Below are positions 18,509 through 64,000 of a stretch of DNA of 64,000 nucleotides, in pieces (positions within the stretch are counted from its first letter, which is position 1; each line of letters opens with the position of its first letter). Both the position numbers and the translations under genes were made by a program. The notes below the pieces were generated by a model. That model saw only the letters and a program-made list of their open reading frames with translations. It had not been told where the DNA came from and made no database searches. The stretch is from NCBI GenBank assembly GCA_049999805.1, contig JBNGIO010006217.1:124543-188542 (forward strand). Direction: 5' to 3'. The stretch is from Folioceros fuciformis (lineage: Eukaryota).

Positions 18509-19313
18509 CCAAGGTTTTGCAGAGAGGTTCGGTACACCTGGAAGAGCAAGGGACAGTCCTTCACGAACAGATGTGTGACATAAGGCACCGAGCAGCCATA
18601 GAGCCACAGGTATTCCGACCTTCGTTGAGTTTGGCAAATGAACCTGCCCATCCTCGATCACTACATTCTGCCTGAGAACCCTTCTTGCCTCTAAAGGTTC
18701 CAGAAGTCATTCTGCCCTTTCATGAAGACATTGGCTCCAACCTCCAGACAGAGACACTTTGTCTCCGCTGGAGAACAAGAAGTCAGAAAGCTTCCTGAAG
18801 CCGTTGAAACTATAACCTCTTGTCCAATAAAAAAACTCAACACCACAGCTCATCAGACTGTCTAAGAGGCCATCCATAGCTACGTCCTAGACTCGGGTCC
18901 CCATACCGCCCTCTGCAGAAAGAGAAACAAAACACTGCTTCACCATGTCCAATTTAATACCGTCTGTTCGTGATGTCAAACCACAAACGTCGATACACTT
19001 TCGAAGTAGAGTCCTTAGTTTGTTTCAGCGAATTCGAATTACTGTATGGTTGTAACACAATAACTTGCTTCCAATTCATTTCCTTCACTTCGCTTTGTAG
19101 CTCCCGATGGATGGATCAGACTGAACAAAAGGCCTTACTCATTCCTTCCCTCCTCTCCTGACTATGATACTTGTAACCTTTGCTTAGAGTCCTCAACCAT
19201 TCAATTGAGTAGTAATTAAGTCTGGTTCAAAAAATCTACAAACACATTACTTTAATTTGAATTACTGGACATTGTATGCAGATCATAAAAATGAAAATGT
19301 CGGGTTAGCTGGG

Positions 19314-19680
19314 CACCCACTATTCGAGAGGCAGGTTACTCTCTCGAAATCTGGATATGGTGAGCACCCACTATTCGAGAGGCAGGTTACTCTCTCGAAA
19401 TCTGGATATGGTGAGGACCCTCTATTCAAGAGGCAGGTTACTCTCTCGAAATCTGGATATGGTGAGGACCCACTANNNNNNNNNNAGAGGCAGGTTACTC
19501 TCTCGAAATCTGGATATGGTGAGGACCCACTATTCGAGAGGCAGGTTACTCTCTCGAAATCTGGATATGGTTAGCACCCACTATTCGAGAAGCAGATTAC
19601 TCTCTCGAAATCTGGATACGGTGACTACTCCCTCTTGATCTGGAAATGGTGACTACTCCCTAGTAATCTGGATAGGGTGC
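19314..19680. repeat. 51-bp tandem minisatellite (about 6 visible copies, interrupted by a 10-N gap) with an internal hairpin
   Basis: Unit CACCCACTATTCGAGAGGCAGGTTACTCTCTCGAAATCTGGATATGGTGAG repeats near-identically and decays into shorter units at 19620-19680. Confidence 0.95.
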
Positions 19681-23480: not shown

Positions 23481-23880
23481 NNNNNNNNNNNNNNNNNNNN
23501 NNNNNNNNNNNNNNNNNNNNNNNNNNNNNNNNNNNNNNNNNNNNNNNNNNNNNNNNNNNNNNNNNNNNNNNNNNNNNNNNNNNNNNNNNNNNNNNNNNNN
23601 NNNNNNNNNNNNNNNNNNNNNNNNNNNNNNNNNNNNNNNNNNNNNNNNNNNNNNNNNNNNNNNNNNNNNNNNNNNNNNNNNNNNNNNNNNNNNNNNNNNN
23701 NNNNNNNNNNNNNNNNNNNNNNNNNNNNNNNNNNNNNNNNNNNNNNNNNNNNNNNNNNNNNNNNNNNNNNNNNNNNNNNNNNNNNNNNNNNNNNNNNNNN
23801 NNNNNNNNNNNNNNNNNNNNNNNNNNNNNNNNNNNNNNNNNNNNNNNNNNNNNNNNNNNNNNNNNNNNNNNNNNNNNNNN
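23481..23880. other. Assembly gap (400 N); other gaps at 19476-19485, 45529-45628, 49986-50085, 52184-52193 and 62972-63071
   Basis: Runs of N in the sequence. Confidence 1.
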
Positions 23881-24719
23881 AACCTCCACAAACACTGCAA
23901 TTCGCACCAGGCCAGGGGCCAGCAACGAAGGTGCAAAGCATGGGATCGAGAACAAAGAACCTGGCAAGACGCTGACTGAAGTTTCCCCTTCTGCTGCTGC
24001 TGCTGCTGTTGAGGATTAGATTGGCCTCAGTCCGACCACGAGATCGAACGACCCCTGCTGCGATCGGCGTCTGATCCTGGCCCCGGCCCTGCTTCTCGTG
24101 TGTCACAGTAACGAGCCTTTCAGGTCCCACCCACTCGTACCACCACCAGATGGCTGCCCCCGACCATCCCCCAAGGCGAGCATCACAAGCGGCTCTCCGC
24201 TCCCGATCACAAAGTGCGATCCCTCGGGTTATTCGCCGCCTTTTCACATTCCCTTGCCAAGCACACGCGTTCACACGCACTTCAGGGCTTTACAAATATG
24301 TGGTCCATGTGGAAACTCGAAAGCCTAGCTATCGAGGAGCCTTCCAGTTGTCATTGGAGAGGTCCAGTCCCAGGCCAACTCCTAGTCCCAGTCCCGGGTC
24401 TAGTTTCGCATGCCTCCCATGGAACGTTGAAGGCTCAGGTGGCGGCGTTCCGGATGGGTCACCCACGTACTGTTCAGTACTCGGTTGTGATGGAGTTTGG
24501 GTGATAGTGCACGAGTACATGTCATGCATCTTGGTTGCATGTGATGGGTTTAGCTCCTCTTCCCAACTTCTTGGATATCTAACAAGGATTGCTCCTCCAT
24601 GGCTCACGGTTTCAAGGGTGCAAGTGCTGCATCGCTGAGTGAGTGACATGAAGTGATCACCGAGTTGCTCTAAGGAAGAGGCACAGGGTGGGTGGGTGGG
24701 TGGGGTGGTTTTGCGAGCC

Positions 24720-26918
24720 ATGGCTGCTTGGTGTGGTGGGATTGAGTCATGCAAAAGGCAGCAGGATCTGTTGTTGTTGGGGTGGACGCAGCAGTTTGGT
24801 GGTGGGGGGGTGACGGGTATTGTAGGAAATGGGCCTGCTCGCCTGACTTCAAGGACCCTGCTGTCGTTGACAGGCCAGGAATGTGTAAAGTGGAGCACAT
24901 TCTCGACATGCACGGGGGCTGCCCGTGCAAGGTCATTCTTGATTGGAGATGGATCTACATTGAAGTGGGATAGCAGGCAAAGTAGGATCCAGGCTAGGGG
25001 CTTGTGGGGGGAGACCGTGAGCCAGCTTTGTGATGGGGGCCATGTCACTGAGGCTGTTGAGGCTCTGGGGGTTCTGGTGCAGACAGATGGAGAGATTCCC
25101 ACATCTCTGCTTTATAAAGTGGTGAGGAGGTGTGTGGTGGAGAAGAATCTTGTGCTGGGTCGCCGTGTGCATGCCTTCATAGTGAAGAAGGGATATGAGT
25201 CGGATACGTTTCTGGGCAATCACATCCTGCGGATGTATGCTTCTCACGGTAGGTTGCAAGAAGCGATGGATGTGTTCAGTGCGGTGGAGGAGGCAGATGC
25301 CTTCATGTGGTCTTCGGTCATCGCTGCACATGTTAGACAAGGGCAGGATAAGGAGGCCATACGATTGTATCGTAGGATGCGGGTGTCAAGAGTGAGGCCG
25401 GATGGGCATGTGTTTGTGGCAGCCCTTCAGGCTTGTGCAAGGGGATTGGACTTGGAGGCTGGGCAGGAAGTGCATGCTGATGTGTTGGCCGGTGGAGTGC
25501 AGCCGGATGTGTTTGTGTGTAACTGCTTGGTGGATATGTATGCCAAGTGCGGCAGCTTGGAGGATGCTGAGAGAGTGTTTCACGGGCTTGGTGAGAAGAC
25601 TGTGGTCACCTGGAATGCTATGATAGCAGGGTATTCGCAGAAGGGCATGGGGCAGAAAGCCCTTGATGTGTACAGGGCAATGCAGGGCGAAGGCTTGGTT
25701 GAGCCTGACTCTGTGACATTTGCCTGCCTCCTGCAGGCATGTGCAAGTGTGGGCACCCCAGCTTTGGAGAGGGGGAGGGAGCTCCATGCGCAGATCAGAG
25801 ATCAAGGGCATGAAGCTGATGTGTTTGTAGCCAGCAGTCTGGTGAACATGTATGCCAAGTGTGGCAGCGTGGGAGACGCACAGAGGGTGTTCGACAGACT
25901 TGGTCACAAGAACGTGGTGACGTGGACTACCATGATAGCAGGGTATTCCCAGCAGGGCATGGGGCAGGAAGCCCTCCGTTTATACGCTGCTATGCAAGAA
26001 GAAGGCATTGCTGTACCCGATGCTGTGACATTTGCCTGTCTCCTGCAGGCATGTGCAAATGTGGCAGCTCTGCATCTGGGAAGGCAGCTACATGCACAGA
26101 TCAAGGAGCGGAGGCTTCAAGCTGATGTGTTCATAGCCGGCAGTCTGATAAGCATGTACGGGAAGTCCGGCAGTATGGGCGATGCTCAGGAGGTGTTTGA
26201 TGCGATGCACGAACGCGATGTCATTGCCTGGAGTGCACTGATTGCAGGTTACACTTCTCAAGGCAACAGCGAGATGGTGTTTCACTTGTTCCACAGAATG
26301 GTTCAGGATGGTATACGTCCAACCGGCACCACATTCCTCAGTCTTCTGACAGTATGCAGCTATACAGGTCTAGTGAGCAAGGGGCAAGAGTACTTCCAGG
26401 CTATGAGCCCACAGCATGGCATCCGTCCTGGTGTGGAGCACTACACGTGCTTGGTTGATCTCCTGGGTCGTGCTGGCCGACTGGACGAAGCTCTAGTGTT
26501 GGTACGGTCCATGCCTGTACCCCCTGATGCTACAGTTTGGAGCACTCTGTTGGGTGCCTGTCAAAAGTGGAGCAACGTGGATGTAGGCCGCTATGCTTTC
26601 GATGAAGCAGTGAAGCTGGATAAGAAAGATCCGGCAGCATACGTGCTAATGCTGAACATATACGGGGGTGCCCAGATGTGGGAGCAGGCACAAGAAATGC
26701 AGACAAGGAGAGTAGGGACTGGGGCATGGAAGCAGCCAGGTCAGAGTTGCTGGACAGACATGGACGGCCTGGTGCACATCTTCCGGGCTGGGCACGAGAA
26801 GCATGAGCATCAACCTCCTGGGAGTGATACAAAATTGAAACAGCAGAGCTCCTCCCAAGATGAAGGAGCAGGGATCGTACTAACATCTCCAATGTCGACA
26901 TGTCTGATTGTGGGATGA
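24720..26918 (+). CDS. PLS-class PPR RNA-editing factor, E1-E2-E+ (WW-type PG box), DYW domain truncated
   Basis: P-L-S triplets (LVDMYAKCGS, VVTWNAMIAGY, VTFACLLQACA), HYTCLVDLLGRAG, E motifs, then WKQPGQSCWTDMDGLVHIF. No in-frame HxE or CxxC. Intronless. Confidence 0.93.
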   Translation: MAAWCGGIESCKRQQDLLLLGWTQQFGGGGVTGIVGNGPARLTSRTLLSLTGQECVKWSTFSTCTGAARARSFLIGDGSTLKWDSRQSRIQARGLWGETVSQLCDGGHVTEAVEALGVLVQTDGEIPTSLLYKVVRRCVVEKNLVLGRRVHAFIVKKGYESDTFLGNHILRMYASHGRLQEAMDVFSAVEEADAFMWSSVIAAHVRQGQDKEAIRLYRRMRVSRVRPDGHVFVAALQACARGLDLEAGQEVHADVLAGGVQPDVFVCNCLVDMYAKCGSLEDAERVFHGLGEKTVVTWNAMIAGYSQKGMGQKALDVYRAMQGEGLVEPDSVTFACLLQACASVGTPALERGRELHAQIRDQGHEADVFVASSLVNMYAKCGSVGDAQRVFDRLGHKNVVTWTTMIAGYSQQGMGQEALRLYAAMQEEGIAVPDAVTFACLLQACANVAALHLGRQLHAQIKERRLQADVFIAGSLISMYGKSGSMGDAQEVFDAMHERDVIAWSALIAGYTSQGNSEMVFHLFHRMVQDGIRPTGTTFLSLLTVCSYTGLVSKGQEYFQAMSPQHGIRPGVEHYTCLVDLLGRAGRLDEALVLVRSMPVPPDATVWSTLLGACQKWSNVDVGRYAFDEAVKLDKKDPAAYVLMLNIYGGAQMWEQAQEMQTRRVGTGAWKQPGQSCWTDMDGLVHIFRAGHEKHEHQPPGSDTKLKQQSSSQDEGAGIVLTSPMSTCLIVG

Positions 26919-31215: not shown

Positions 31216-34200
31216 ATGGCTGTTTGGAGATTACCTGGCGTCCGAGGAAGAGGTCCCGCTCATCTTTCTCCAAGGAGCCAACTGATGGCAAACAACGGTG
31301 CCACGAGGTGCGGTGCCTTTGTAGCAAAAGGAAGTCTGGCTGGAGAGGCATCTTACAACTTCCATGTATGGCGGCGACAGTTTTATTCGGATCCCACGCT
31401 TTGGTGGGAAAGCAGACAGCAGGATAGTTGTGGTTCCCTGGATCCTCGGCTAAGGGAGCCTCAGGATATTCTTTTCTTTGACGAACTTAGCAAGTCAGCT
31501 CGTGGGGTGGCTGCTCTGGACGTGCACATGGGTGGTTGTGCTCCTCCATCCAACTCGATCGTTCCCCATGATTTTCACCCTCGCAGACCTGTAGGATACG
31601 AAATGGAGATCACAGCTGAAACCGTGAGCAAGTCATGTCACCAGGGACAGCTCGCTGAGGCCATTGAGGCTCTGGGAGTTCTTGTGCACACCCACGTCGA
31701 CATCTCCACATCTCTGTTTTACACAGTCCTAAAAGAATGTGTGGCTAAGAAGGATCTGGTTCTGGCTCGCCTTATTCATGCTCTCATGGTGAAGAAAGGA
31801 TATGAAACGAACACGTTCCTGTGCAACCACATCCTCCGAGTGTATGCTTCTCATGGCAGGTTGAAAGAAGCTATGGGCGTGTTCACTGTGGTGGAAAAAC
31901 CAGATGTCTTCACCTGGTGTGCCATAATCTCCGCCCATGTCAAACACGGACAGGACATACAGGCCATAGAGCTATATCAGCAGATGCGCCGGTCAAGTGT
32001 GAAACCAAATGGGCATGTGTTTGCAGCAGCCCTTCAGGCGTGTGCAATGGGGGGGAACATGAAATTAGGGCAGCAGGTGCATATTGATGTCTTGGCTAGT
32101 GGCATTCAGCCTGACTTGTTTGTGTGCAGCAGCTTGGTGGACATGTATGCCAAGTGCGGTAGCTTGGATGACGCTCGAAGGGTCTTTGACGGGCTACCTC
32201 AGAAGGATGTTGTGACTTGGAATGCCATGATTGGAGGATATTCCCAGCAGGGTATGGGACGAGAAGCCCTTCGTGTTTACAGTGCTATGCAAGCAAGTGG
32301 CGGGACTGCACCCAACTCTGTGACATACGTGTGCCTTCTGCAGGCATGTGCTAGTGTGCGTATCCCAGCTTTGGAGAGTGGTAGGCAGCTTCATGCACAG
32401 ATAGGAGAACGAGGACTTCAGGCTGATGTAGTGTTAGGTGGGAGCCTGGTGAACATGTACGCAAAGTGCGGTAGTCTGGAGGATGCTCGAGGCGTATTTG
32501 ATGGACTCGGGCGAAAGAATGTGGTGACGTGGAATGCCATGATATCAGGATATTGTCAGCACGGCATGGGCCAGCAAGCCCTTGGTCTTCGCAGAGTTAT
32601 GCAAGAAGATTGCGCAGTACCTGATCCTGTGACTTTGGTCTGCCTTTTGCAGGCATGTGCAAGTGTGGGCAGCTCAGCTTTGGAGGAGGGGAGGCAGATT
32701 CATTCACAAATCAGAGAAAGAGGACTTCAGGCTGATGTTGTTATTGCTAGCAGTTTGGTGGACATGTATGCAAAATGTGGCAGCATAGAGGAAGCTCGAG
32801 GCCTATTTGACAGACTTGTTCAAAAAAACGTGGTGACATGGAGTGCCATGATAGCTGGATACGCCCACCAGGACATGGGTCAGGAGTCCCTCCTTCTTTA
32901 CGACGCTATGCAAAAAGAAGGTATGACTTTACCCAATCTGGTGACATTTGTGTGCCTGTTGCAGGTATGTGCAAGTTTGGGTATCTCGGCTTTGGAGAAG
33001 GGAAGGCAGCTTCATGCGCAAATCATCAAACAAGGACTTGAGGGTGATATTTTACTGGCCAACGGCTTGGTGAGCATGTATATAAAGTGCGGCAGCCTGG
33101 AGGATGCTCAGGGCGTGTTTACTAGTATTAGTGTAAAGAATATTGTGACGTGGAATGCCATGATATCAGCATACTCCCAGCAGGGCATGGGGCAGGAAGC
33201 GCTTCTTCTCTACAGTGCTATGCAAAAAGAGGGCATTGTTTTACCCAATACTGTGACGTTCGTTTCTCTCCTGCAGGCATGTGCAGCTATGGGGACCCGG
33301 TCTCTGGAGCAGGGGAAGCAATTTCATGCTGAGATTGTAAAACGAGGGCTTGTGGCGGATGTAGTTGTGGGAGGGAGCCTGGTGAACATGTACGCAAAGT
33401 GTGGCAGCCTGGAGGATGCTCGGGCTGTATTTGAGGGACTTGGAAAAAAGAATGTGGTGACATGGAGTGCTCTCATAGCAGGATATTCCCAACAGGACAT
33501 GGGCCATGAGGCCCTAGATCTCTACAGCGCTATGCAAGAAGAAGCTGTCACTGTACCCGATTCTGTAACATTTGTATCCCTCCTGCAAGCATGTGCGAGT
33601 GTTGGCCTCGCAGGTCTAGAGAAGGGGAAGGAGCTTCATGCACAAATTAGAGAACAAGGACTACATGATGACGTTTCTGTTGCCAACAGCTTGGTAAACA
33701 TGTATGCAAAGTGTGGCAACCTAGAGGATGCACAGGGTGTGTTCGACGGACTTTGTCAAAGAAATGTGGTCACATGGAGTGCCTTGATAGCTGGTTATTC
33801 CCAGCAGGGCATGGGTGAGGAAGCCCTTCGCCTTTACAAAGCTATGCAAGAAGAAGGCATTGTTACGCCGAATTCCGTGACATTTGTGTGTCTCCTGCAG
33901 GCATATGTCAGTTTGGGCACCACTAGTTTGGACACTGGGAAGCAGCTTCATGAGCAGATTAGAGATCAAGGACTTGAGACTGATGTTGTTGTAGGTGGGA
34001 GCCTGGTCAACATGTACGCAAAGTGTGGTAGGCTGGAGGATGCTCTGTGTGTGTTCAAGAGACTCAGTCGAAAGACTGTAGTTACGTGGAATGCCATGAT
34101 TGGAGGATACTGTCAGAGAGGGATGGCACAGGAAGCTCTTGATCTCTACGCGGTCATGCAAATGGAAAATGCGATTGTACCTGATTCTGTGACATTCCTT

Positions 34201-35898
34201 TGTCTTCTTCAGTCGTGTGCAAGTTTAGGCACTCCAGCGTTGGAAAAAGGGAAGCAACTTCATGCAGCACTCAGAGAACAAGGACTCCAAGCTGACATGT
34301 TTGTCGCTAGCAGTTTGGTGGACATGTACGCAAAATGTGGCAGCCTGAAAGATGCTCGGGCCCTGTTTGATGGATTGGGGGAGAAGAATGTGGGGACATG
34401 GAATGCCATGATAGCGGGATATTCCCAGCAAGGCATGGGGATGGAAGCTCTCTGTCTTCATAAGGCTATGCAAGAGGAGGGCATCTCTAAACCCAACAGT
34501 GTGTCCTTTGTGTGCCTCCTGCAGTCATGTGCAAGTTTAGGCCCTCCAGCTTTGGAGCAGGGGAAACAACTCCATGCAGCTGTCACAGAACAAGGTCTCC
34601 AGGCTAATGTGGTTATAGCCAACAGCTTGGTGAACATGTATGCAAAATGCGGTAGCCTAGAAGATGCTAAGAAGATGTTCGCTGGCCTTCCTCAGAAAGA
34701 CGTGGTGACATGGAATTCCATGATAGCAGGGATTTCCCAGCAGGGCATGGGACTAGAAGCCCTTAATCTTGTCAATGATATGCCACATGAGAGCATGGCT
34801 GAACCAAGTGCTGTGACACTCGTGTGCCTACTCCAGGCTTGTGCCAGTGTGGGCCCCCTGGCATTGGAACAAGGGAGGCAGCTTGATGCACGAATTAGGG
34901 AACGAGGTCTTCAAGAGGATGTATTTCTGGCGAGCAGTCTAGTCAACATGTATGCAAAGTGTGGCAGCCTCGAGCATGCTCGCGCAGTGTTTGATGGACT
35001 CAGTGAAAAAAATGTGGTGACATGGAGTGCCATGATATCTGGATATTCCCAGCAGGGCATGGGGCAGGAAGCGCTTCGTCTCTACAGTGCTATGCAGCAA
35101 GAAGGCATTGTTGTACCGAATTCCGTGACATTCGTCTGTCTACTTCAAGCTTGTGCATCTGTGGCGGCTTTGGATTCTGGAAGGCAGATTCATGCACAGA
35201 TCAAAAAGCGAGGGCTGGAAACTGATTTGCTTGTAGCTGGCAGTCTGATGAGTATGTATGGAAAATGCGGCAGTGCCGTCGATGCTCAACAGCTTTTCGA
35301 GGCACTGGAGGAAAGAAACGTTGCCATCTGGAATGCACTGATTGCGGCATACTCCCGGCAGGGACACAGCGAAAAGGTTTTCGATTTGGTCGTCAGGATG
35401 AGTGAGGACGGCATCAAGCCAGACGGCGTTACATTCTTGAGTCTCCTGGCAGTATGCAGCCACGGAGGTCTAGTGAAGAGGGGACGAGATTACTTCGACA
35501 CGATGAGCAAAGACTACGGCATCGCCCCCACAGTGGACCATTACACATGCATGGTCGATCTCCTCGGTCGTGCCGGCCAACTGGACGACGCACTAGCTGT
35601 AGCAAGGACAATGCCTGTACTCCCTACCGCTGCAGTATGGCACACTCTACTAGGCGCTTGTCAAAAGTGGAGAAACGTGGAGATCGCATTTGATGCGTTC
35701 AGCGAAGCAGTCAAGCTAGACAAGAAGGACGCTGCATCCTACGTGTTGATGTCGAATATATACACAAGTGCTCAGATGTGGGAGCAGGCACAAGAAATGC
35801 ACGCGAGAAGAGTCCAAATGAAGGCATGGAAGCAGCCTGGCCTGACCTGGTGGACAGACATGGATGGACTGGTGCACAATTTCTCTGTGAGGAAGTGA
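31216..35898 (+). CDS. Very long (1560 aa) PLS-class PPR RNA-editing factor, about 12 PLS triplets, E1-E2-E+ (WW-type), DYW domain truncated
   Basis: Twelve S-type motifs at a ~312-nt period, then HYTCMVDLLGRAG and E motifs, ending WKQPGLTWWTDMDGLVHNFSVRK*. Intronless. Confidence 0.95.
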   Translation: MAVWRLPGVRGRGPAHLSPRSQLMANNGATRCGAFVAKGSLAGEASYNFHVWRRQFYSDPTLWWESRQQDSCGSLDPRLREPQDILFFDELSKSARGVAALDVHMGGCAPPSNSIVPHDFHPRRPVGYEMEITAETVSKSCHQGQLAEAIEALGVLVHTHVDISTSLFYTVLKECVAKKDLVLARLIHALMVKKGYETNTFLCNHILRVYASHGRLKEAMGVFTVVEKPDVFTWCAIISAHVKHGQDIQAIELYQQMRRSSVKPNGHVFAAALQACAMGGNMKLGQQVHIDVLASGIQPDLFVCSSLVDMYAKCGSLDDARRVFDGLPQKDVVTWNAMIGGYSQQGMGREALRVYSAMQASGGTAPNSVTYVCLLQACASVRIPALESGRQLHAQIGERGLQADVVLGGSLVNMYAKCGSLEDARGVFDGLGRKNVVTWNAMISGYCQHGMGQQALGLRRVMQEDCAVPDPVTLVCLLQACASVGSSALEEGRQIHSQIRERGLQADVVIASSLVDMYAKCGSIEEARGLFDRLVQKNVVTWSAMIAGYAHQDMGQESLLLYDAMQKEGMTLPNLVTFVCLLQVCASLGISALEKGRQLHAQIIKQGLEGDILLANGLVSMYIKCGSLEDAQGVFTSISVKNIVTWNAMISAYSQQGMGQEALLLYSAMQKEGIVLPNTVTFVSLLQACAAMGTRSLEQGKQFHAEIVKRGLVADVVVGGSLVNMYAKCGSLEDARAVFEGLGKKNVVTWSALIAGYSQQDMGHEALDLYSAMQEEAVTVPDSVTFVSLLQACASVGLAGLEKGKELHAQIREQGLHDDVSVANSLVNMYAKCGNLEDAQGVFDGLCQRNVVTWSALIAGYSQQGMGEEALRLYKAMQEEGIVTPNSVTFVCLLQAYVSLGTTSLDTGKQLHEQIRDQGLETDVVVGGSLVNMYAKCGRLEDALCVFKRLSRKTVVTWNAMIGGYCQRGMAQEALDLYAVMQMENAIVPDSVTFLCLLQSCASLGTPALEKGKQLHAALREQGLQADMFVASSLVDMYAKCGSLKDARALFDGLGEKNVGTWNAMIAGYSQQGMGMEALCLHKAMQEEGISKPNSVSFVCLLQSCASLGPPALEQGKQLHAAVTEQGLQANVVIANSLVNMYAKCGSLEDAKKMFAGLPQKDVVTWNSMIAGISQQGMGLEALNLVNDMPHESMAEPSAVTLVCLLQACASVGPLALEQGRQLDARIRERGLQEDVFLASSLVNMYAKCGSLEHARAVFDGLSEKNVVTWSAMISGYSQQGMGQEALRLYSAMQQEGIVVPNSVTFVCLLQACASVAALDSGRQIHAQIKKRGLETDLLVAGSLMSMYGKCGSAVDAQQLFEALEERNVAIWNALIAAYSRQGHSEKVFDLVVRMSEDGIKPDGVTFLSLLAVCSHGGLVKRGRDYFDTMSKDYGIAPTVDHYTCMVDLLGRAGQLDDALAVARTMPVLPTAAVWHTLLGACQKWRNVEIAFDAFSEAVKLDKKDAASYVLMSNIYTSAQMWEQAQEMHARRVQMKAWKQPGLTWWTDMDGLVHNFSVRK

Positions 35899-43532: not shown

Positions 43533-45628
43533 CGACTCCCGTCTGCGAGAAAATGGATACAGTCTGCTGAAGCTCTGCCTGCTGCAATATTATCCCGGCC
43601 CAAATGTGGATTGCCAGGGCAGTGCGAAGTCGCACTCAGAACATCAGCAAAGCAAGCTCTATGATCACGTTTCCTGGAGTAGCGTGACCTGCGGGTAACA
43701 CCAGCCTAGCATGTCCCGATCTCCCGATCATCTCAACTGCAGCCAAACTCAGTGGACAGAAAGACACAAGCCTAGGCCAGGAAAGACATCCAGGACGGAA
43801 GAGAAATGTGCAAAATGCTGCTGTGTGGAGGCGGCCCAGAAATGCGAAATAGACATCTTATCTACCTGTGGGCAGAGCTGGGCCGTCGGGACGAAGGGCT
43901 GGTAGCAGTCGGTCAGTGTGGCCAGCTGACGAGTCAAGCAGGTACCACATGGAAGACGCTGTCCGTGCGCAGGCTGCAGACTGAGATTGCAGGCGGGTAG
44001 CTGGTCTCAACTCACTGTTCCGACGCTTATCAACGCTTTGCTCATAACTACTAGTACATGCCTACACGGCGGGCAGTCCGAGCTGGCGCTGGAGTAGCTA
44101 CCCATGCTCTTCATTGCCACTGTAGCATTGATTGCGCAAAGAAGACGAGGTCGACAGCACAGCCTTGGTCGACGAACTATCCAGAACCTGACTGGGCGTC
44201 CATGGATACATACATATCTTTGTATCTAGCTACACGCTTCACAGCTTCAAGTTCCAGCGGTGGGACATACATCAGTTTGTGGCAGCAGCAGCTTTGCAGC
44301 CTGTCAAACTTGCAAACTTGCAGTGATGACAGGAGCAGCCACCTGTGCAAACTGCTGTACGCTGCTGCGTTCTGTACATCTGCAAGCTCGGAGTGTGTAC
44401 GCTGCGTGCTGTACATCTTCGAGCTCGGAGTGTGCCAGTACTTACTGCCGCTGCTGCAGTTTGAGATCGTGTCCAAATGGGGCAAGAGATGCACGAGACG
44501 CGGGAAGTCCGTACTGTGATTCACGTGACAGACTTGTAAGCTGGGCGCTGGCTCTGTTGCAGGAGTTGGTGGCTTGGCTGGCTGGGATTGTACACGGTAG
44601 GGAGGGTGTTGCTCCTGGAGCTGCGCCGGGCTGAAAATGATTTTGGGCAAATCATCGGCAAATGGCCTATAATTTTGTGTACCTGCCTGTTTTGCACGAA
44701 GTCTGGTCAATGACATTTCGAAATTCTCATCTCGGATTGAGATGCACTCCTCAGAGTCACGACTCAAACGTCAGACTGAGAGGTTAATGCGAGAAGTCGC
44801 CCGGGCAGGGCACTAAGACCTTTCAAAGTTTCCTTTGCGCTTGCTACCTCTCTTCACCGAGCCTGGGAAGTTGCGAGGGGCTGGTCTATCGAGGCCTGGG
44901 GTATCGCGTGGCACTGGCAAGATGGCCATTACATCATAAGGTACGAGTGGTGACTATCCCCGAGCTGGTTGCATTAGATAGTTATCCACGCAATACACCC
45001 TCCTTTGGTGGTTGCGATCCGATTTCTTCTCGGCCTTCCTCAAGCAGGTTACCGCGGATGTTCACGTCAAAAGGCCTTGATGAAGCACTCCCAAGATGCA
45101 AACAAGACGCCTTTAACTTACACCTGGCTACGTTTCACTAGCCATTCCACTTTGGTAAAGCCACTGTTAAATGTAATACCTTCCACTCTAAACTGAATAC
45201 AACAGCCTTAGTTTTTCCTCTCGTTTGCTCTCAAATCGTGTGATCCTAGTCTTACAATTCTTTTATCGAATCTCATCTGCGAAAGGCATATAGAAGCTTT
45301 GGCATACGGCTATGGGTCTTGCTAGTATTGTATGTATCTCTTGCATGATATTAATTATATTTATTTCTTTACTGACTTTGCTTTCAAAAAGCTTTGACAT
45401 GAGACTATTATGGGTCCTGATGGTATCATATGCATATATCTTTTTTTAGATTAATTTTAATTATTTCTTCACTCACTTTGCTTTCGAAGTGAGTGATAGT
45501 ATGCTCGAGCTGCTCGGGCTCTCCATACNNNNNNNNNNNNNNNNNNNNNNNNNNNNNNNNNNNNNNNNNNNNNNNNNNNNNNNNNNNNNNNNNNNNNNNN
45601 NNNNNNNNNNNNNNNNNNNNNNNNNNNN

Positions 45629-49759: not shown

Positions 49760-51170
49760 ATTTAAGAGTATTAATGTTAGTATGGCCCAGACGTTGATGC
49801 CAAAGACTTAAAGACATTCAAGCTGTTATTGGAGCGCCTTGCTTCGGACCCTCATGACGAGTCAACATGGACATTGTTTCTCTTTCTTCCCAGGTGGTGC
49901 CTTCGTCGTTCCAAGGGTGGCCTTTCTGGTCACAAGGAAGTGGCCTCCCGCCTTCATCGGTTCCGGGCGCAGGATTGGGAGGCTTNNNNNNNNNNNNNNN
50001 NNNNNNNNNNNNNNNNNNNNNNNNNNNNNNNNNNNNNNNNNNNNNNNNNNNNNNNNNNNNNNNNNNNNNNNNNNNNNNNNNNNNNAGTGGCCTCCCGCCT
50101 TCATCGGTTCCGGGCGCAGGATTGGGAGGCTTTATAGGTGGAGGCCGGTTGTGCCACGAGATCAAGGTTGGAATCCGCCAAGTTGCACCAGGTCCATCAG
50201 GCAAAGGCACGTCTCAAGAGGTGTCTTTTACTTGGTCGGGCGGGGGAGTTTGCAAGAGCCGCCGAGGCCCTTCGGCCAGAGCCAATGGTGTCGCTCTTGG
50301 AGGAGTCCATCACCGCCCTCTGTGCTTTGCATCTAGGCTTTCCGAATTGCACTAGCTTCTTTCTCTACCGCGATGAGGTTCTGCCTTGGTTTGGTCCAGC
50401 TGTTGGCGTGGTCTCTCTCTTCTTGTAGCTATGGGGTCCCCCTCGATGACCCCGGGAGCCACCTGACACGTTGCCCTATCGGCGGGCAATGCATCGCCAC
50501 CTATAATGTAGTGAGGGACGTTATGTTTTCTTTGGCCGAGGAGGGTGGCTTCTTCCCCTACAAGGAGCACCCATATACCTTGCTAAATGGCATCTCCCTC
50601 ATTGTAGACCTTTTCCTGACCAAGGGGGACCAGGTTTCTATAATGGATGTGGTGGTCGCAGATTCTACTTGGACAACCATCAGTAAGCACGTCGTTATCA
50701 ACCCCCTGGGTTGGGCAACAGAAGGAAGCGCGACAAGGAAGACTTGAACGTACACGCCCGTACAGCAGGGTCACTTGTTCATCCCCCTTGCTATTAAAAC
50801 ACATGGGGCTATGGGTAAGGATTTTTCCAGGTTTTTGAAAACATGCGCGAAGGCTCATCACGTCAGTAGGAGCGGCATAGGGCTTCCCCTATCCAGCGTG
50901 GTGGCATTTTTCCAGCAACGGGTTTTGATTGCGCTACAAAAGGTAATAGCAAATGCAATTTTTCGGACAACATCGAGCATGGCAAATGCAGCGTCAGCGG
51001 TCCCGATGGTAAGTAGGCCATACCTTATACCTGAATGTGAAATCTTAGGGGCGATAGGGAGTTACAGGCTACGCAGATGAGGGGATTAGGACCCCCATTC
51101 TTGGCTTTTCCGCATTGTGGGTTGTTCCCCTTGTCACAGGGTAGATGGAATTTTCATCTCTTTTTTTCTA
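49760..51170 (+). mobile_element. CRE-like (restriction-like endonuclease) non-LTR retrotransposon remnant with internal RT deletion and 3' end
   Basis: N-terminal WTLFLFLPRWCL...RLHRFRAQDWEAL and GEFARAAEAL; Cys/His knuckle CSYG..DDPGSHLTRC..GG...YNVVRD; REL C-terminus FIPLAIKTHGAMG...FFQQRVLIALQK..ANAI; T-rich 3' end. Confidence 0.75.
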
Positions 51171-51870: not shown

Positions 51871-53314
51871 TTGTGGACGTCAAGTGAGCACAACCGGGTG
51901 TTTTTTCTACACAATGTGCTCATAACAATGAGTAAGATCTGATAAAGTTGTAATCAACTTAAGGTTGATTCTTCAGTCCTATGGAAAGAGCAGCCATGTC
52001 TCTAATAATGTCACTTTCATTTTCCTCTTAGGCTTCTAATTTTTGAGACATGGAACTCAAGAGATTAATAGTATCAAATGCATTATCTTGACCGATCATC
52101 CTCTTTTTGGACATGACTTTATTGTTGACTCCACTTGTCAAAGAACTCTCCACACTCACCCTTTATGTGCAATGTATGAGCCTNNNNNNNNNNGAACTCT
52201 CCACACTCACCCTTTATGTGCAATGTATGAGCCTCACACACAACATGAGCACGATTATGCATGTCAAGGTCAAAAAAGTTAGATTATACACATGTTTCAT
52301 ATTTATTGTCAACTGGTATGGCATTGTGAACCTCGTCCATAATTTCAATTTCCACTTCTACATATAGGGCTCTGAATTCTTACCATAAGGCAACTTGCAA
52401 ATGTTGTTCTTGGCACTACATAAGGCAATGAGAAGTTAGTGGCAAATAAAAAACCATTCACTTGTAAGGTTTACAACAAGTGGCTTATTTTATTCACTTG
52501 AAAGCCTTGTGACAACTTGTAAACCTTAAAACAAGTGACTTATTTGCAAGCTCCCGTTAAGCTGCTCTCTTGCTCAATACTAAACCCATCACATTCATCG
52601 TCACTACTAAAATCACTACCACTTATGTACCAAAATCTACTTTTCTTGTACATGCCCTATTCACAAAGGTGATGTAAAAATGTATCCATGTCAAATAAAG
52701 GAATGGTTGCTAAATAATGTACACAACATATGGACGACTAGAAATGAGATGCGCAGATAAGGTGATCGAACTGTGATAGCGTAAATAACAAAGTCCTCAA
52801 CAATTCCAAGTTTTTGTATGACATAACCCGACCTCGTCGATCGCTTCGCCAGGAAACTATAAGTGGAATAACTTGTCATATAAAAGTATGCAGGCATCAC
52901 CCAATCCCCGACTCTCCAATTTTCCATGTCAACGGAGCCTCCTTCCATTACTGGTCCCCAGGTAGGCACAGGAAGGAGCATTTGACACTCCGATCCCATT
53001 CTCAAAATCAATTTTAGAAGAAAAAAGAAAGAATGACAGAAACTATGAAGGCGACGTCATCCGAAAAATCGGTGGCGATGCTCACCCACGACCCTAGGGA
53101 ACCTGACGATGGCGACGGTCAGGAGTTCCCACCACAGTTGTGAGATGGGATGGGGTGGGCTAGTTGGTTGTCAAGACAAACACTGAAGAAATGGAATCTT
53201 CGCACGCCTCCCCGATCGGCAACAAGTCTCCCTGCTAGGAGTTTGAAACTAGGCGGCGGTTGGCCTGGACGAGTAGTACGTGTTAGGCCAATCCTTGCGC
53301 GAGGCAATCGTGAA

Positions 53315-58600: not shown

Positions 58601-59153
58601 ACCACATGGTCATCCTTATATGGTATTAGAAAAGACCTAAAAAACCTTAAAAAAAAAAAGACAAACCTAGAACACCTAAAAAAATAAGAAAAGACAACCT
58701 AGAACAGAGAATCCACTCTATCTAGTATGGATTTATGGGCAGAGATGTTTTAAATAATAAAAGAATTTATTGAAAGATAAATAATAAATAATATTAATGC
58801 TATAAAGTAAAAAATTGGAAGTAGAGAAGACAAGAAAATTAATATAATAGTTGGTCTTGGGAAGATCACCTGTTGATAGACAACTCATGGATGGTGGAGT
58901 TTGGATGAATCATTGCTTTCAAGAAAAGCACACCATCATGGAGAAGGTAGCTTCTCCAAAGCTGCCGGGGTTGAAGCTGAGTTTACAGCATCACGTTTCT
59001 GTGCTGTCTTGCACGAAGGTGTAGCAATCAGTGTTCTAGATTTGATATGGGGTCCATAGATTTCATGAGCATCACTAGCCATTCTGCCACAGCGTAACTA
59101 CAGATGTGTTTAAGTATGTCGTAGGCCTATTGTCCGAGAGCAGGGCCCGGAAG

Positions 59154-62066
59154 ATGGCCACAGCATGGCAACTGGATTTGTCTTACATCCAACAAATTGT
59201 TGGGGGTACAGGAATTATCAGAGGAACTCCAGCTCATGTCACCTCAGGGAGTCGTCCGCTGGGATACAACCAAGCCTCCAGGTGCAGGACCGTGAGGAGC
59301 CCGGCTCTTCCATTGCCGGGAAAATGTGCAGGTGGATGCTCGAGGGATGGAGCCAGCCAGGGGCAGGAGCGGTTGTGGAGGCAATTATTTTTGGGTTCTG
59401 CCTTGTGGTGGGATGACAGGCGAGGTACGAAGAGGTTTCGTGCCCCTGACTTCCGACGTGAATGGTCTAGCCAGGTCTTGCTGGTAAACAACACAGCCGA
59501 GCCAACGCCAGCTTGGGCGGATGAGGAGCTCGTTTGCTTGGATTTGCGGATGGGTCGTGGTTCCTCTTGGTGGAAGAGGAAGCCTGTGGAGAAGAATGAG
59601 CCTGGCAGGCGTGGGGGGTCGGGAATGGGCGTCGTCACCGGTGTAACCGTGGGCACGCTGTGTCAGCAGGGGAAGCTTAATGAGGCTGTTGGAGCTTTGG
59701 AATATCTTGCCAAGGCGGAGGGTGCGATTTCTGAGTCTTTGTTTTATTCTGTGCTGAAACTGTGCGCGGCTAAGAGGGATCTGGTTTTGGGGCGACGGGT
59801 TCATGATCTCACCGTCAAACTTGGGTACGAGTCGAATTCGTACTTGGGGAACCATATCTTGCGCATGTATGCATCTGGAGGTCGGCTACAAGAGGCCATG
59901 GATGTGTTCACCAGGGTGGGAAAACCAAATGCTTTCATGTGGTTTTCCATCATCTCCGCTCATGTGAAACATGGGAAGCCTAATGAGGCTATACAGCGGT
60001 ACCATGCAATGCGTGGCTCAGGTGTGACGGCAGATGCGCACGTCTTTGTAGCTGCTCTTCAAGCTTGTGCACTTGCCATGGACTTGGAATCTGGCAGGGG
60101 AGTACACTGTGATGTGTTGAACAGTCGCATGGCTCCTAACTTGTATGTTGGCAACAGCCTGGTTGACATGTATGCAAAATGTGGCGCACTGAAAGATGCA
60201 CGCCAGGTTTTTGACAGCTTGACCGCTAAGGATGTGGTGACATGGAATTCCCTAATTGCTGGGTATGCACAGCAAGGGCTCGGTCAGGAGGCGCTTGGTC
60301 TGTATGGACAAATGGAGGAAGAGGGCCTGATTTTGGCTAACCAAGTTACTTTCTCTTGCATTCTGAAGGCCTGTGCAAGCGCTGGTGCTTTGCAGAAGGG
60401 CAGGGAGGTGCACTCACAGATTGTTCAAAGAGGACTGCTGGACAACATGCTCGTGAGCACCTGCCTGTTGGACATGTATGCAAAGTGTGGTGCATTGAAA
60501 GATGCACGTCTAGTTTTTGATAGCTTGGCCACTAAGGATGTGGTGACATGGAATGCCTTGATTGCTGGGTATGCCAATCAAGGGCTCTGCCAAGAGGCGC
60601 TCGTTCTGTATGGCCAAATGGAGCAGGAGGGCATAGTTGTGCCTGACCATGTTACTTTTGCAGGCCTTCTGAAGGCCTGTGCAAGCGTTGGTGCCTTAAA
60701 GAAGGGCAGGCAGCTGCACACTCAGATTGTGAAAAGAGGATTGATAGATGACATAGTGCTGGGCAACGCTCTGGTGGACATGTATGCAAAATGCGGAGAA
60801 ATGAGGGATGCACAAGGGGTTTTTGACAGCTTGGCCTCAAAAAATGTGGTGACATGGACGGCCCTGATAGCTGGGTATGCACAGCAAGGGCTTGGCGAAG
60901 AGGCGCTTGTTGTGTATGGACAAATGGAGCAAGAGGGCTTGATTTTGGCTAACCATGTTACTTTTGCTTGCCTTTTGAAGGTTTGCGCGAGCACCGGTGC
61001 CTTGCAGAAAGGCAGGGAGCTGCACTCACAGATTGTGGAAAGTGGACTGTTAGATAACATACTGGTAGGCAGTTGCCTGATAGACATGTATGCGAAGTGT
61101 GGCGAACTGGAAGACGCACGAAGGGTTTTCGACAGCTTGGCCACAAAAAGTGTGGTGACATGGACGGCCCTGATATCTGGCTGTGGGGCTTGTGATGAAG
61201 GCCACTCCGCAGTAGCTTGTTTTGAGGCGATGTTGGATGCCAGTGTTCAGCCGGATGAAGCTACTTTTACTTGTCTTTTAGCAGCATGCAGTCATGAGGG
61301 ACTCGTGCATGAGGGACGCAAGCACTTCGATTCCATGGCTGAACAGCACGGCATCAATCCTACTATTGAGCATTACAATTGCATGATTGACCTTCTTGGG
61401 CGTGCAGGTCACTTAGACGAGGCAGAGAGCATGTTAGTATCATGTGGGAGCCAAAGCAATGCTGTGGGGTTGACATCTTTGCTTAGTTCCTGCAAGAGTT
61501 ACGGGGATGTAGAGAGGGCGATACGGTGTTTTGAAAGCCTCGTTACGCTGGAGCCTCAGGGTGCATCGGCGTATGTGCTCATGGCCACTGCCTATGCAGA
61601 CGCTGGGAGATGGGCGGATGTGGACAGGATTGAAAAACGGAGAATGATGGCAGGAGCTAACAAGAAGCCTGCAATGGCAACCATTGAGGTGGAGAAGCAG
61701 GTACACACATTTGTGGTTGGAGAAAACAGAGAAGATATTGCTCTCAAGGTGGGGAGCATGAACAAACGTCTGCAGCAGGAAGGGGGCCACGTGCCACTCA
61801 CAGAGTTGGTGCTGAAGCCACTGCACGAGAAGGAAAAGGAGGATCAGCTTTGCGGGCATGCTGAGAAGCTAGCTCTGGCGTATGGTCTCTTGAATACCTC
61901 GGATGGCACCCCTCTGCTGGTAACGAAGAATCTACGCATGTGCAGTGACTGCCACAGTTCCACGGAGGTCATGTCAAGGGTTGAAAAGAGAGACATTGTT
62001 GTCAGGGATGGGTATCGTGTGCATCGATTCGCAGCTGGTGGATGCAGTTGTCGGGGTCGACCGTGA
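59154..62066 (+). CDS. PLS-class PPR protein with complete DYW:KP domain, GRP subtype (candidate U-to-C organellar RNA-editing enzyme)
   Basis: PLS triplets at a 306-nt period, E1/E2, then KKPAMATIEV in place of the PG box, LCGHAEKLALAYGLL, KNLRMCSDCH, RDGYRVHRF and terminal CSCRGRP*. Intronless; ATG at 59154. Confidence 0.93.
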   Translation: MATAWQLDLSYIQQIVGGTGIIRGTPAHVTSGSRPLGYNQASRCRTVRSPALPLPGKCAGGCSRDGASQGQERLWRQLFLGSALWWDDRRGTKRFRAPDFRREWSSQVLLVNNTAEPTPAWADEELVCLDLRMGRGSSWWKRKPVEKNEPGRRGGSGMGVVTGVTVGTLCQQGKLNEAVGALEYLAKAEGAISESLFYSVLKLCAAKRDLVLGRRVHDLTVKLGYESNSYLGNHILRMYASGGRLQEAMDVFTRVGKPNAFMWFSIISAHVKHGKPNEAIQRYHAMRGSGVTADAHVFVAALQACALAMDLESGRGVHCDVLNSRMAPNLYVGNSLVDMYAKCGALKDARQVFDSLTAKDVVTWNSLIAGYAQQGLGQEALGLYGQMEEEGLILANQVTFSCILKACASAGALQKGREVHSQIVQRGLLDNMLVSTCLLDMYAKCGALKDARLVFDSLATKDVVTWNALIAGYANQGLCQEALVLYGQMEQEGIVVPDHVTFAGLLKACASVGALKKGRQLHTQIVKRGLIDDIVLGNALVDMYAKCGEMRDAQGVFDSLASKNVVTWTALIAGYAQQGLGEEALVVYGQMEQEGLILANHVTFACLLKVCASTGALQKGRELHSQIVESGLLDNILVGSCLIDMYAKCGELEDARRVFDSLATKSVVTWTALISGCGACDEGHSAVACFEAMLDASVQPDEATFTCLLAACSHEGLVHEGRKHFDSMAEQHGINPTIEHYNCMIDLLGRAGHLDEAESMLVSCGSQSNAVGLTSLLSSCKSYGDVERAIRCFESLVTLEPQGASAYVLMATAYADAGRWADVDRIEKRRMMAGANKKPAMATIEVEKQVHTFVVGENREDIALKVGSMNKRLQQEGGHVPLTELVLKPLHEKEKEDQLCGHAEKLALAYGLLNTSDGTPLLVTKNLRMCSDCHSSTEVMSRVEKRDIVVRDGYRVHRFAAGGCSCRGRP

Positions 62067-63081
62067 GAATGATGATGAACTAGGCAGTCAGTGATTCCGA
62101 GCAGGGGATGGGTCTGGAAGCCCTTGTCCTTTCCCGGTGCGGTGATGGGTCATTTGGAGGCGGTTTCCCGTTGGCTTCAGTATTACCCACACTGAGGCCA
62201 AGCTCCAACTGCTGTCTGGATCTTGTGCTCTGCCGGGCTTGACTTTGTCAAAACGGAGACTTCCCAGGTCTGCGCTGCGGAACGAACATATCCGTGAGTG
62301 GGTTTGTCCTCTGCCAACTGCTTTGGCCTACACAGCAGCTGGCCAGAAGGACAGAAAACCCTTTATCCTATTCTAGACCTCGTACTCGAATCTGAGCACG
62401 AAACAGCTTCCCAGTCTGCATGTGTGGAGGAACGCATTCAATACAACAGTGCATTCCTATCTCTGATCCGCCTAGGCTGGACCCCGAAGAGTCCAGTACC
62501 ACAACCTTCTCTTCAGCGAGCACAGTGGAGTGGACGAGACCCCACCGACAATGACATGCGAGCAGCAAAGCTGAAGGCGGTCCACTTGGACACTAAACTG
62601 TCCAGACCAATCTTTCGACAGGCACTCGGCCAGAAGATTTTGTTCGTGTATTGTGCATGCCGCGATTTGTGCTTGGCTGGTCAATAAAGATCGGAGCACT
62701 CAAGGTGTTCTTGAAACCCGTGGTCTTCAAAGTTCCTGGAGTTGGGCAGTGGATCCGTTTGTCCTCGCAGTTGCAGGAGGTGGACAGTGAGTCCGTTTTC
62801 CTCGCAGTTGCAGGAGGTGGGCCGTGTTATACATCGGTGTTAGCAGCTCACTCCGTTGCATGTTATGGCTTGAGCTTTATCAAGTTTCCGCGAAGCTTTT
62901 CTCTGGCTTCGATCCTTTCTGATCGAATAGGTTGTGTGCTACCCGTGTGGAATTAGGAGATCAGACCTGATNNNNNNNNNNNNNNNNNNNNNNNNNNNNN
63001 NNNNNNNNNNNNNNNNNNNNNNNNNNNNNNNNNNNNNNNNNNNNNNNNNNNNNNNNNNNNNNNNNNNNNNNGAGGAGGAGG

Positions 63082-64000
63082 ATGGAGGCTGCTGGCCCGG
63101 CGGAAGAAGCGGCAGCGGCAGGAAAGAAGAGGTGCCTTGTGCGTTTGACAAGGTCTGTGACGGCAGCAGCGCGACGGTATGATGAAAGGGAAAGGAATGA
63201 GGGAGAGCTGGAGCCTGCTGGAGGCGGCGAGGCTGCTTCCAGCCAGGAAGCAGAGCCAGCTGCTGAAGAGAATCAGGCCAGGGCTAAGAATGGCGGGACA
63301 AAGAAACGGAAGAGGATGGACACGCGGGAGGTCTTGAAGCAGATGGAGGCGGAAGGTGTGGACCCGCTGAAGATGAAAATGAGCGACCTGATATGGCGTG
63401 CACAAGCGCTGGAGAGACTCAAGGCCAAGGACGACCCTGCGAAAAAGGCGCCTGCGCAGAGGCGGGTGGTGCAAGAAGCCAGGAATGGGGACGCGCAGCG
63501 AGTGGAACCTGTGGCTGTGGCGGCTCCGCAGGTGCAGGTGGTTGATGGAAGAATTGTGATCAACGAGGAGAGCCTGGTGATATCGTCTCACGCCACCGAG
63601 GCACGGAACGGGGAAGGGTATACCAGGGTGGAGGAGAACGTGTCCAAGCTGAATTACCACAGCTACAGCAACCGCGAGAAGGTGGACCGGTGGAAGCCTG
63701 AGGAGACTGATAGGTTCTACAAGGCGTTGGAGCAGTTCGGGACCGATTTCGGGTTGATCGAGCACCTGTTCCCGGGTCGGACACGGCGGCAGGTGAAGGC
63801 CAAGTACAAGATTGAGGAGAGGCTGAACCCTCGCCGCCTGGATGACGCTTTGAATTGCATGTCCCGGGGACCTGTGTATCACCAGGAATTGGTTGAGATG
63901 TTGATGCCCCAGCCCCAGCCCCAGCCCGCAGATGAAGTGGAGGATGTGCTTGATGGAGGTGGTGCAACGATGAAGCCGGGTAACGTGCCCGTGGAGGATG
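63082..64000 (+). CDS. BDP1: BDP1 / TFIIIB B'' subunit-like SANT-domain protein (partial; 5' end abuts an N gap, ORF runs off the window)
   Basis: Open frame not listed in the ORF track: APQVQVVDGRIVINEESLVI...KLNYHSYSNREKVDRWKPEETDRFYKALEQFGTDFGLIEHLFPGRTRRQVKAKYKIEERLNPRRLDDAL. Confidence 0.85.
   Translation, partial: MEAAGPAEEAAAAGKKRCLVRLTRSVTAAARRYDERERNEGELEPAGGGEAASSQEAEPAAEENQARAKNGGTKKRKRMDTREVLKQMEAEGVDPLKMKMSDLIWRAQALERLKAKDDPAKKAPAQRRVVQEARNGDAQRVEPVAVAAPQVQVVDGRIVINEESLVISSHATEARNGEGYTRVEENVSKLNYHSYSNREKVDRWKPEETDRFYKALEQFGTDFGLIEHLFPGRTRRQVKAKYKIEERLNPRRLDDALNCMSRGPVYHQELVEMLMPQPQPQPADEVEDVLDGGGATMKPGNVPVED

Follow-up and report, generated by a model that had tools for sequence, protein, structure and literature searches.

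Two described systems are close to the locus analysed here. The OSB proteins bind single-stranded DNA (ssDNA) through the PDF motif, which is the part responsible for this activity and is sufficient for it in OSB1 (PMC6963530, PMC6451138, PMC4166229). In hornworts, the DYW:KP class of pentatricopeptide repeat (PPR) proteins comes in two variants, DRH and GRP, each called after its three C-terminal residues; U-to-C editing by designer GRP proteins in Escherichia coli reaches about 22–26% (PMC9478123). The stretch studied here, 64,000 nucleotides of a Folioceros fuciformis contig (JBNGIO010006217.1; hereafter the window), contains a gene at 59154–62066 of the forward strand (+) in which a module of the first system precedes a protein of the second. 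Residues 74–126 of its product, encoded at 59373–59531 (+), match the PDF motif in a divergent form, with the P-D-F triad at residues 98–100, and the remainder is a candidate U-to-C editing PPR protein.

A first-pass annotation of this DNA had proposed an OSB-type PDF motif at 59373–59543 (+). Translation of this segment gives residues 74–130, and they are identical to the 57 residues that it quoted. The PDF unit does lie inside the segment, though it ends at 59531 and the last four residues (VCLD) fall beyond it, where they coincide with the L..LD tail of relatives. After 4 of the 55 phmmer matches described below had been set aside as PPR-containing, the 166 PDF units of the other 51 proteins were used to derive a profile of 50 match positions (OSB-only profile); this length agrees with the approximately 50 aa given for the motif in PMC6963530 and PMC4166229. 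All positions from 1 to 50 aligned with residues 74–126, with 27.8 bits and an independent E value (i-E) of 1.2e-8 (125 targets), a significant outcome of the profile check that the annotation had proposed. The match thus covers the full length of the profile, being the weakest of 178 full-length units, and both the P-D-F triad and the invariant positions are present. When the same profile was run against the 873 stop-to-stop frames of the window, the PDF unit was the sole match at E<0.01 (E 4.9e-8).

The reverse search gave a concordant picture. Using the 95-aa segment encoded at 59319–59603, phmmer retrieved from 1.84 billion representative proteins 55 matches at E<=1e-3, 11 at E<=1e-10 and none at E<=1e-30, the best E values reaching 2e-21. 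The top matches are proteins that carry the PDF motif as tandem repeats. Named ones include NCBI entries 'protein OSB3, chloroplastic/mitochondrial-like' from Chenopodium quinoa and Lupinus angustifolius, and a Ceratopteris cluster with one member named 'Single-stranded DNA-binding protein'. All five OSB-like matches scanned with Pfam have an SSB domain (PF00436) upstream of the PDF repeats, with a score above the curated cut-off in four cases. The repeats themselves are covered by no Pfam family, and the PDF segment of the present protein likewise matches no Pfam or NCBIfam family. That a W/R-rich stretch resembles the PDF consensus by chance has a negligible probability: only the short length of the motif speaks for it, and it is refuted by the profile matches, obtained with a profile free of PPR proteins, and by the reciprocal phmmer search, to which are added the better-kept units found at the equivalent position in the closest relatives. 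With chance excluded in this way by the two profile E values and the phmmer matches, sequence comparison establishes residues 74–126 as a true PDF-motif homologue, and the resemblance noticed at first pass reflects real homology.

In comparison with OSB1–OSB4 of Arabidopsis (PMC6963530, PMC6451138, PMC4166229, PMC13393729), the protein shares the PDF unit of about 50 aa, the P-D-F triad, the W, D, R, F and P positions and an organelle-type N-terminus. In the OSB proteins, an SSB/OB-like domain comes before PDF units at the C-terminus, whereas the present protein has no OB domain, and its single unit, far more divergent than the OSB units, is N-terminal and precedes a PPR array and a deaminase domain. 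Indeed, residues 1–189 gave no Pfam match, neither to the SSB/OB-fold-like domain of the OSB family nor to any other family. The protein is therefore not an OSB and has only the PDF module in common with this family.

In the usual description, a PLS-class PPR editing factor consists of a transit peptide, a PPR array and E/DYW domains. The gene encodes these parts, and the PDF unit with them, in one exon: an intronless, uninterrupted open reading frame (ORF) of 970 aa that on translation extends from the first ATG at 59154 to the stop at 62064–62066. Residues 1–73 (59154–59372, +), counted from the first ATG, have no Pfam match, and their composition (8 K+R, 3 D+E, 12 S+T) suggests a presequence, presumably an organelle-targeting one. 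The PDF unit comes directly after this leader and is followed by a linker without family match (residues 127–163; 59532–59642, +), in which Met133 and Met157 are in frame. The module hence lies between the presequence-like N-terminus and the first PPR motif, outside the PLS-E-DYW architecture, as the first-pass annotation had placed it. The PLS-type PPR array occupies residues ~164–782 (59643–61499, +; Pfam PPR, PPR_2, PPR_1 and PPR_3), its borders being placed by the first PPR-like helix and by where the E motif begins; over the whole ORF, Pfam gave E 1.3e-79 for PPR and 7.1e-79 for PPR_2. The E motif (residues 783–845; 61500–61688, +; Pfam E_motif E 6.3e-12) ends with K-K-P-A-M-A at residues 837–842, where canonical factors have the PG box; the box that replaces it (residues 838–842) goes by the name KPAxA. 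The DYW-type deaminase domain spans residues 878–968 (Pfam DYW_deaminase E 1.3e-31), and the segment at 61785–62066 (+) that encodes it also includes the C-terminal G-R-P and the stop codon. The zinc-ligand motifs of PPR-DYW editing factors, H-x-E and C-x-x-C-H, are present as H-A-E and C-S-D-C-H.

The combination of PPR array, E motif and DYW deaminase domain is that of the PLS-class PPR-DYW proteins, and K-P-A-x-A instead of the PG box together with GRP instead of the DYW end is that of the DYW:KP GRP subgroup. Because of the K-K-P-A-M-A, H-A-E and C-S-D-C-H motifs and the GRP end, the protein is, by its sequence, a PLS-E-DYW:KP (GRP) PPR and a candidate U-to-C editor, and the identity first given to it is borne out. 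With the hornwort GRP proteins of PMC9478123 it shares the PLS array, E motif, K-P-A box, H-x-E, C-x-D-C-H and GRP end. Those proteins are described there by their PLS array and C-terminal domains, the designer ones with an artificial N-terminal tag, and a PDF or OSB-like module is not mentioned in the available portion of that paper.

The closest relatives are P0024 (58% identity, ending in GRP), P0112 (also ending in GRP) and the fragment P0167, all three assembly-derived. Each has a PDF unit at the equivalent place of its PPR-array ORF, 63–86 residues after the first Met, which scores 63.4, 38.3 and 64.9 bits, respectively, with the OSB-only profile and is better preserved than the unit of the window. 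These relatives bear on the question of whether the PDF-like frame is part of the protein at all, since translation might start at Met133 or Met157 and leave behind a 5′ leader that is open by accident. Besides the two in-frame methionines, such a start is suggested by several short upstream ATGs in 58940–59153, because of which the leader is not clean, and by the relative P0044, which begins directly at the PPR array. Nevertheless, P0024, P0112 and P0167 encode the unit in frame, and an open frame of about 130 codons with a full-length profile match is not what untranslated sequence would be likely to yield, so that we consider a downstream start very unlikely. A weak further hint comes from sequencing runs of the same organism, in which contigs of run X3 (RNA by our guess) match 58940–59828 exactly, without any difference, and the DNA run X1 reaches further upstream. 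It can be taken as no more than a faint sign of transcription in the region, and the equivalent position of the unit in the three relatives seems the better argument that the segment is coding. In runs X6 and X11, from other organisms, short paralogue-like pieces were found over the PPR and DYW parts only and the PDF unit was not covered.

How widespread is the fusion? N-terminal PDF units, one to three per protein, were detected at i-E<1e-5 in 15 of the 120 best PPR relatives. Diphasiastrum complanatum, a lycophyte, accounts for seven of the 15, in which as many as three units occur. The rest comprise two moss proteins, one of Ceratodon purpureus and one of Sphagnum jensenii, a JGI protein closely similar to that of Sphagnum, two proteins of the liverwort Calypogeia fissa, one of the fern Adiantum capillus-veneris, P0024 and P0112; another Adiantum PPR protein gave a marginal PDF match (E 2.8e-4). 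According to Pfam, 6 of the 15 carry a DYW domain, including canonical ...DYW, ...DSW and ...DYYW ends, and 9 end after the E motifs or earlier; Pfam was used for this assignment, and typing of C-termini by regular expressions was rough (it missed the DYW of P0097). By lineage, canonical DYW domains are found on PDF-PPR proteins of mosses and one liverwort, and E-only ends on proteins of one lycophyte. The special tie between the PDF module and U-to-C editors that the first-pass annotation implied finds no support, as canonical DYW proteins and E-only PPR proteins carry the module too. The motif was found in none of the five named seed-plant proteins (four from Cryptomeria, one from Typha) and nine 'Gb_' proteins among the 120, a sample of 14 that is too small for a claim of absence. 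Word-indexed searches with the N-terminal regions of P0001 and P0024 returned only P0024 itself, a result due to the lack of 5-residue words common to the relatives and not to a lack of relatives. On these comparisons, this gene is not alone in having acquired the PDF unit. The unit is part of a widespread architecture in which one to three PDF units at the N-terminus precede a PLS PPR array, and which occurs, across all C-terminal classes, in hornwort-like proteins and in those of mosses, liverworts, lycophytes and ferns.

A tree of 174 distinct PDF units (51 columns, poorly resolved) required 7 label changes for the PPR-borne units, compared with 23.7 in shuffles, none of the 500 shuffles being as low. 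The PPR-borne units are found mainly in two groups, one hornwort-like and the other with moss, liverwort and lycophyte units, a distribution that supports few origins, perhaps a single one. The short 'non-PPR' rows P0158, P0160 and P0175 that fall within these groups may be N-terminal fragments of PPR proteins.

Two observations concern the range of the motif itself. According to OSB reviews, the PDF motif is said to be confined to green plants; P0125 and its cluster, from the dinoflagellate Effrenium voratum, have at least seven tandem PDF-like units and no SSB domain, reflecting either a wider distribution of the motif or a transfer. P0133, a protein of 1160 aa from the angiosperm Kingdonia uniflora, has 10 matched PDF stretches, far above the one to five units per protein given in the OSB papers.

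We consider it probable that residues 74–126 are a genuine, divergent PDF motif belonging to this widespread PDF-PPR architecture, and that they form a putative accessory single-strand binder, in a module probably weakened in this gene. On RNA, PPR arrays are oriented with their N-terminal repeat facing the 5′ end, and for this reason an N-terminal PDF unit would be placed over the strand just 5′ of the sequence-specific PPR footprint. There, it could add sequence-independent single-strand affinity for RNA through its conserved aromatic and basic residues; alternatively, it could hold the factor on nucleoid ssDNA. Such accessory binding would be weakened in this gene. The conserved positions of alignment A2, which comprises 35 PDF units, are largely aromatic and basic, and would fit stacking and electrostatic contacts with a single strand.

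Several observations weigh against this reading. A role on RNA is not a given, because OSB1 and OSB2 prefer ssDNA to dsDNA or RNA (PMC4166229). The homology of the unit, its position and the recurrence of the architecture are read directly from the sequence comparisons; translation from the first ATG, retention of the segment in the mature protein after import and any binding by the unit are what we infer from them. The unit of the window scores lowest of all full-length ones, 27.8 bits compared with 38.3–81.7 (median 69.4) for the other 177, and its end branch in the unit tree measures 1.44 for a median of 0.33. Of the 7 nearly invariant columns of A2 it keeps 4; the 3 lost are the W of the L-W pair, the P before the W-W pair and an aligned K, and two residues are inserted ahead of the P-x-W element. 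The unit has a net charge of 0 (median +2), while its aromatic content is preserved, with 8 residues (median 7). Also, the GRP relatives P0034 and P0044 gave no PDF unit with the OSB-only profile, and a paralogue located 28 kb upstream of the gene has only an eroded relic left; for these two reasons the module is dispensable in this clade.

The paralogue, at 31216–35895 (+), is a large PLS PPR ORF of about 1560 aa from the first Met that reaches an early stop shortly after a PG-type box (...KQPGLTWW...FSVRK, stop) and so lacks a full DYW domain. Its N-terminus and that of the PDF-PPR gene are homologous (BLASTP E 4e-5), and hhalign of A2 with the N-terminus of the paralogue gave a probability of 60.7% (E 8.2e-5, 57 columns). 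The relic lies at 31363–31536 (+) and reached only 1.0 bit with the OSB-only profile, which is not significant. A third PPR-like open frame in the window, 24657–26915 (+; 753 codons stop to stop), is related to the PPR part of the gene (phmmer E 4.7e-184) and has no PDF signal with the same profile (-3 bits); a run of 400 N (23481–23880) lies just upstream of it.

These data raise the possibility that the unit in this gene was inherited from an ancestral PDF-PPR protein, binds nothing, and now serves as a spacer or as part of a long presequence. Such a decaying relic would account for the lowest score among the 178 full-length units and the long end branch, for the loss of three nearly invariant residues, including the W of the L-W pair, and for the existence of GRP relatives without the unit; the paralogue at 31216 would represent a later stage of the same erosion. 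On the other hand, the approximately 130 codons upstream of the PPR array are still open, all six invariant columns of A2 (W, D, R, D, F and P), among them those of the P-D-F triad, are kept, and the profile matches from end to end and not in part. Taking both sides together, we regard a complete relic as possible but rather unlikely. Also for the genuine but divergent PDF motif that we favour, the module has evolved fast in this gene; because the unit scores lowest and the paralogue keeps only an eroded relic, it may be weakened or decaying here, and this lineage is evidently losing or remodelling it.

The unit may still fold. A model of it made with AlphaFold2 (AF2) from alignment A2 has a mean predicted local distance difference test (pLDDT) score of 79.9 and a predicted template modelling (pTM) score of 0.65, with a confident core of pLDDT 86–92 over most blocks, and shows two to three short strands between two helices. 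This confidence relies on the better-conserved rows of A2, a further point on the negative side of the balance drawn above. A sequence search of the PDB with the OSB-like protein P0132 gave no match at E<=1, and Foldseek with the AF2 model none at E<=0.001; VIA-align wide gave a best Z of 4.0 (root-mean-square deviation 3.3, 64 residues) and none at Z>=5, which does not make the fold new. The lack of a PDB relative by sequence and of a fold match for the model would be compatible with a unit that makes protein–protein contacts, for oligomerisation or partner recruitment, and does not bind nucleic acid; OSB2 has indeed been reported as a tetramer (PMC6963530). We think this quite improbable, since ssDNA binding has been attributed to the motif itself (PMC6963530, PMC6451138, PMC4166229) and the conserved positions are mostly aromatic and basic.

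Going beyond this gene, PDF-PPR proteins might represent an old functional architecture of early-diverging land plants, in which an ssDNA- or ssRNA-binding module 5′ of the PPR footprint would couple editing to the ssDNA of the transcribing nucleoid, making it co-transcriptional, or provide a helper affinity that accessory proteins supply in seed plants. We put this forward as a doubtful, speculative extension. If a single-strand-binding module is real in five early land-plant lineages, it would be an extra component of the 'simple' editosome outside seed plants, would offer a testable link between editing and nucleoid DNA, and could matter for the engineering of U-to-C editors, as GRP designs work poorly (22–26%, PMC9478123). 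The value of this gene alone is lower, because its PDF copy is the most worn one seen.

A small module that binds single-stranded nucleic acid N-terminal to a PPR array has precedents: maize PPR4 has an N-terminal RRM (PMC9459714), and RRM-PPR fusions have been described (PMC13386178). The modules differ in fold and family, and these RRMs are found on P-class splicing factors whereas the PDF hosts are PLS-class proteins. Among the extra PPR domains listed in the available parts of PMC9459714 and PMC13386178, PDF does not appear. A 2022 overview of moss PPR proteins gives RRM, LAGLIDADG, SMR, NYN, CBS and SAP as extra domains, and PDF or OSB is absent from the main text of a 2026 kingdom-wide survey of domain fusions in editing factors. 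A 2026 study of the OSB family admitted only proteins with OB as well as PDF domains; PPR is nowhere mentioned in it. A literature search, outside which were Zaegel et al. 2006, Gutmann et al. 2020 and supplements, found no description of a PDF-PPR fusion, in agreement with the first-pass annotation, which knew of no functional description. The architecture thus appears to be undescribed so far; the sequences were already public, and what is new is its recognition.

Why has this fusion gone unrecognised? Surveys of extra domains in PPR proteins rest on Pfam-type models, and the fusion may have been overlooked because no Pfam model covers the PDF motif.

The remaining observations concern the window as a whole. 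Its G+C content is 0.486, and runs of N mark assembly gaps at 19476–19485, 23481–23880, 45529–45628, 49986–50085, 52184–52193 and 62972–63071. A frame of 95 codons on the reverse strand (19286–19570, −) showed five weak, periodic, partial matches to profile positions 21–29, with a whole-frame E of 0.026, and is probably a low-complexity repeat and no PDF unit. Finally, an open frame at 63082–64000 (+) that continues past the end of the window contains a SANT/Myb-like stretch, WKPEETDRFYKALEQFG...RTRRQVKAKYK, identified by eye.

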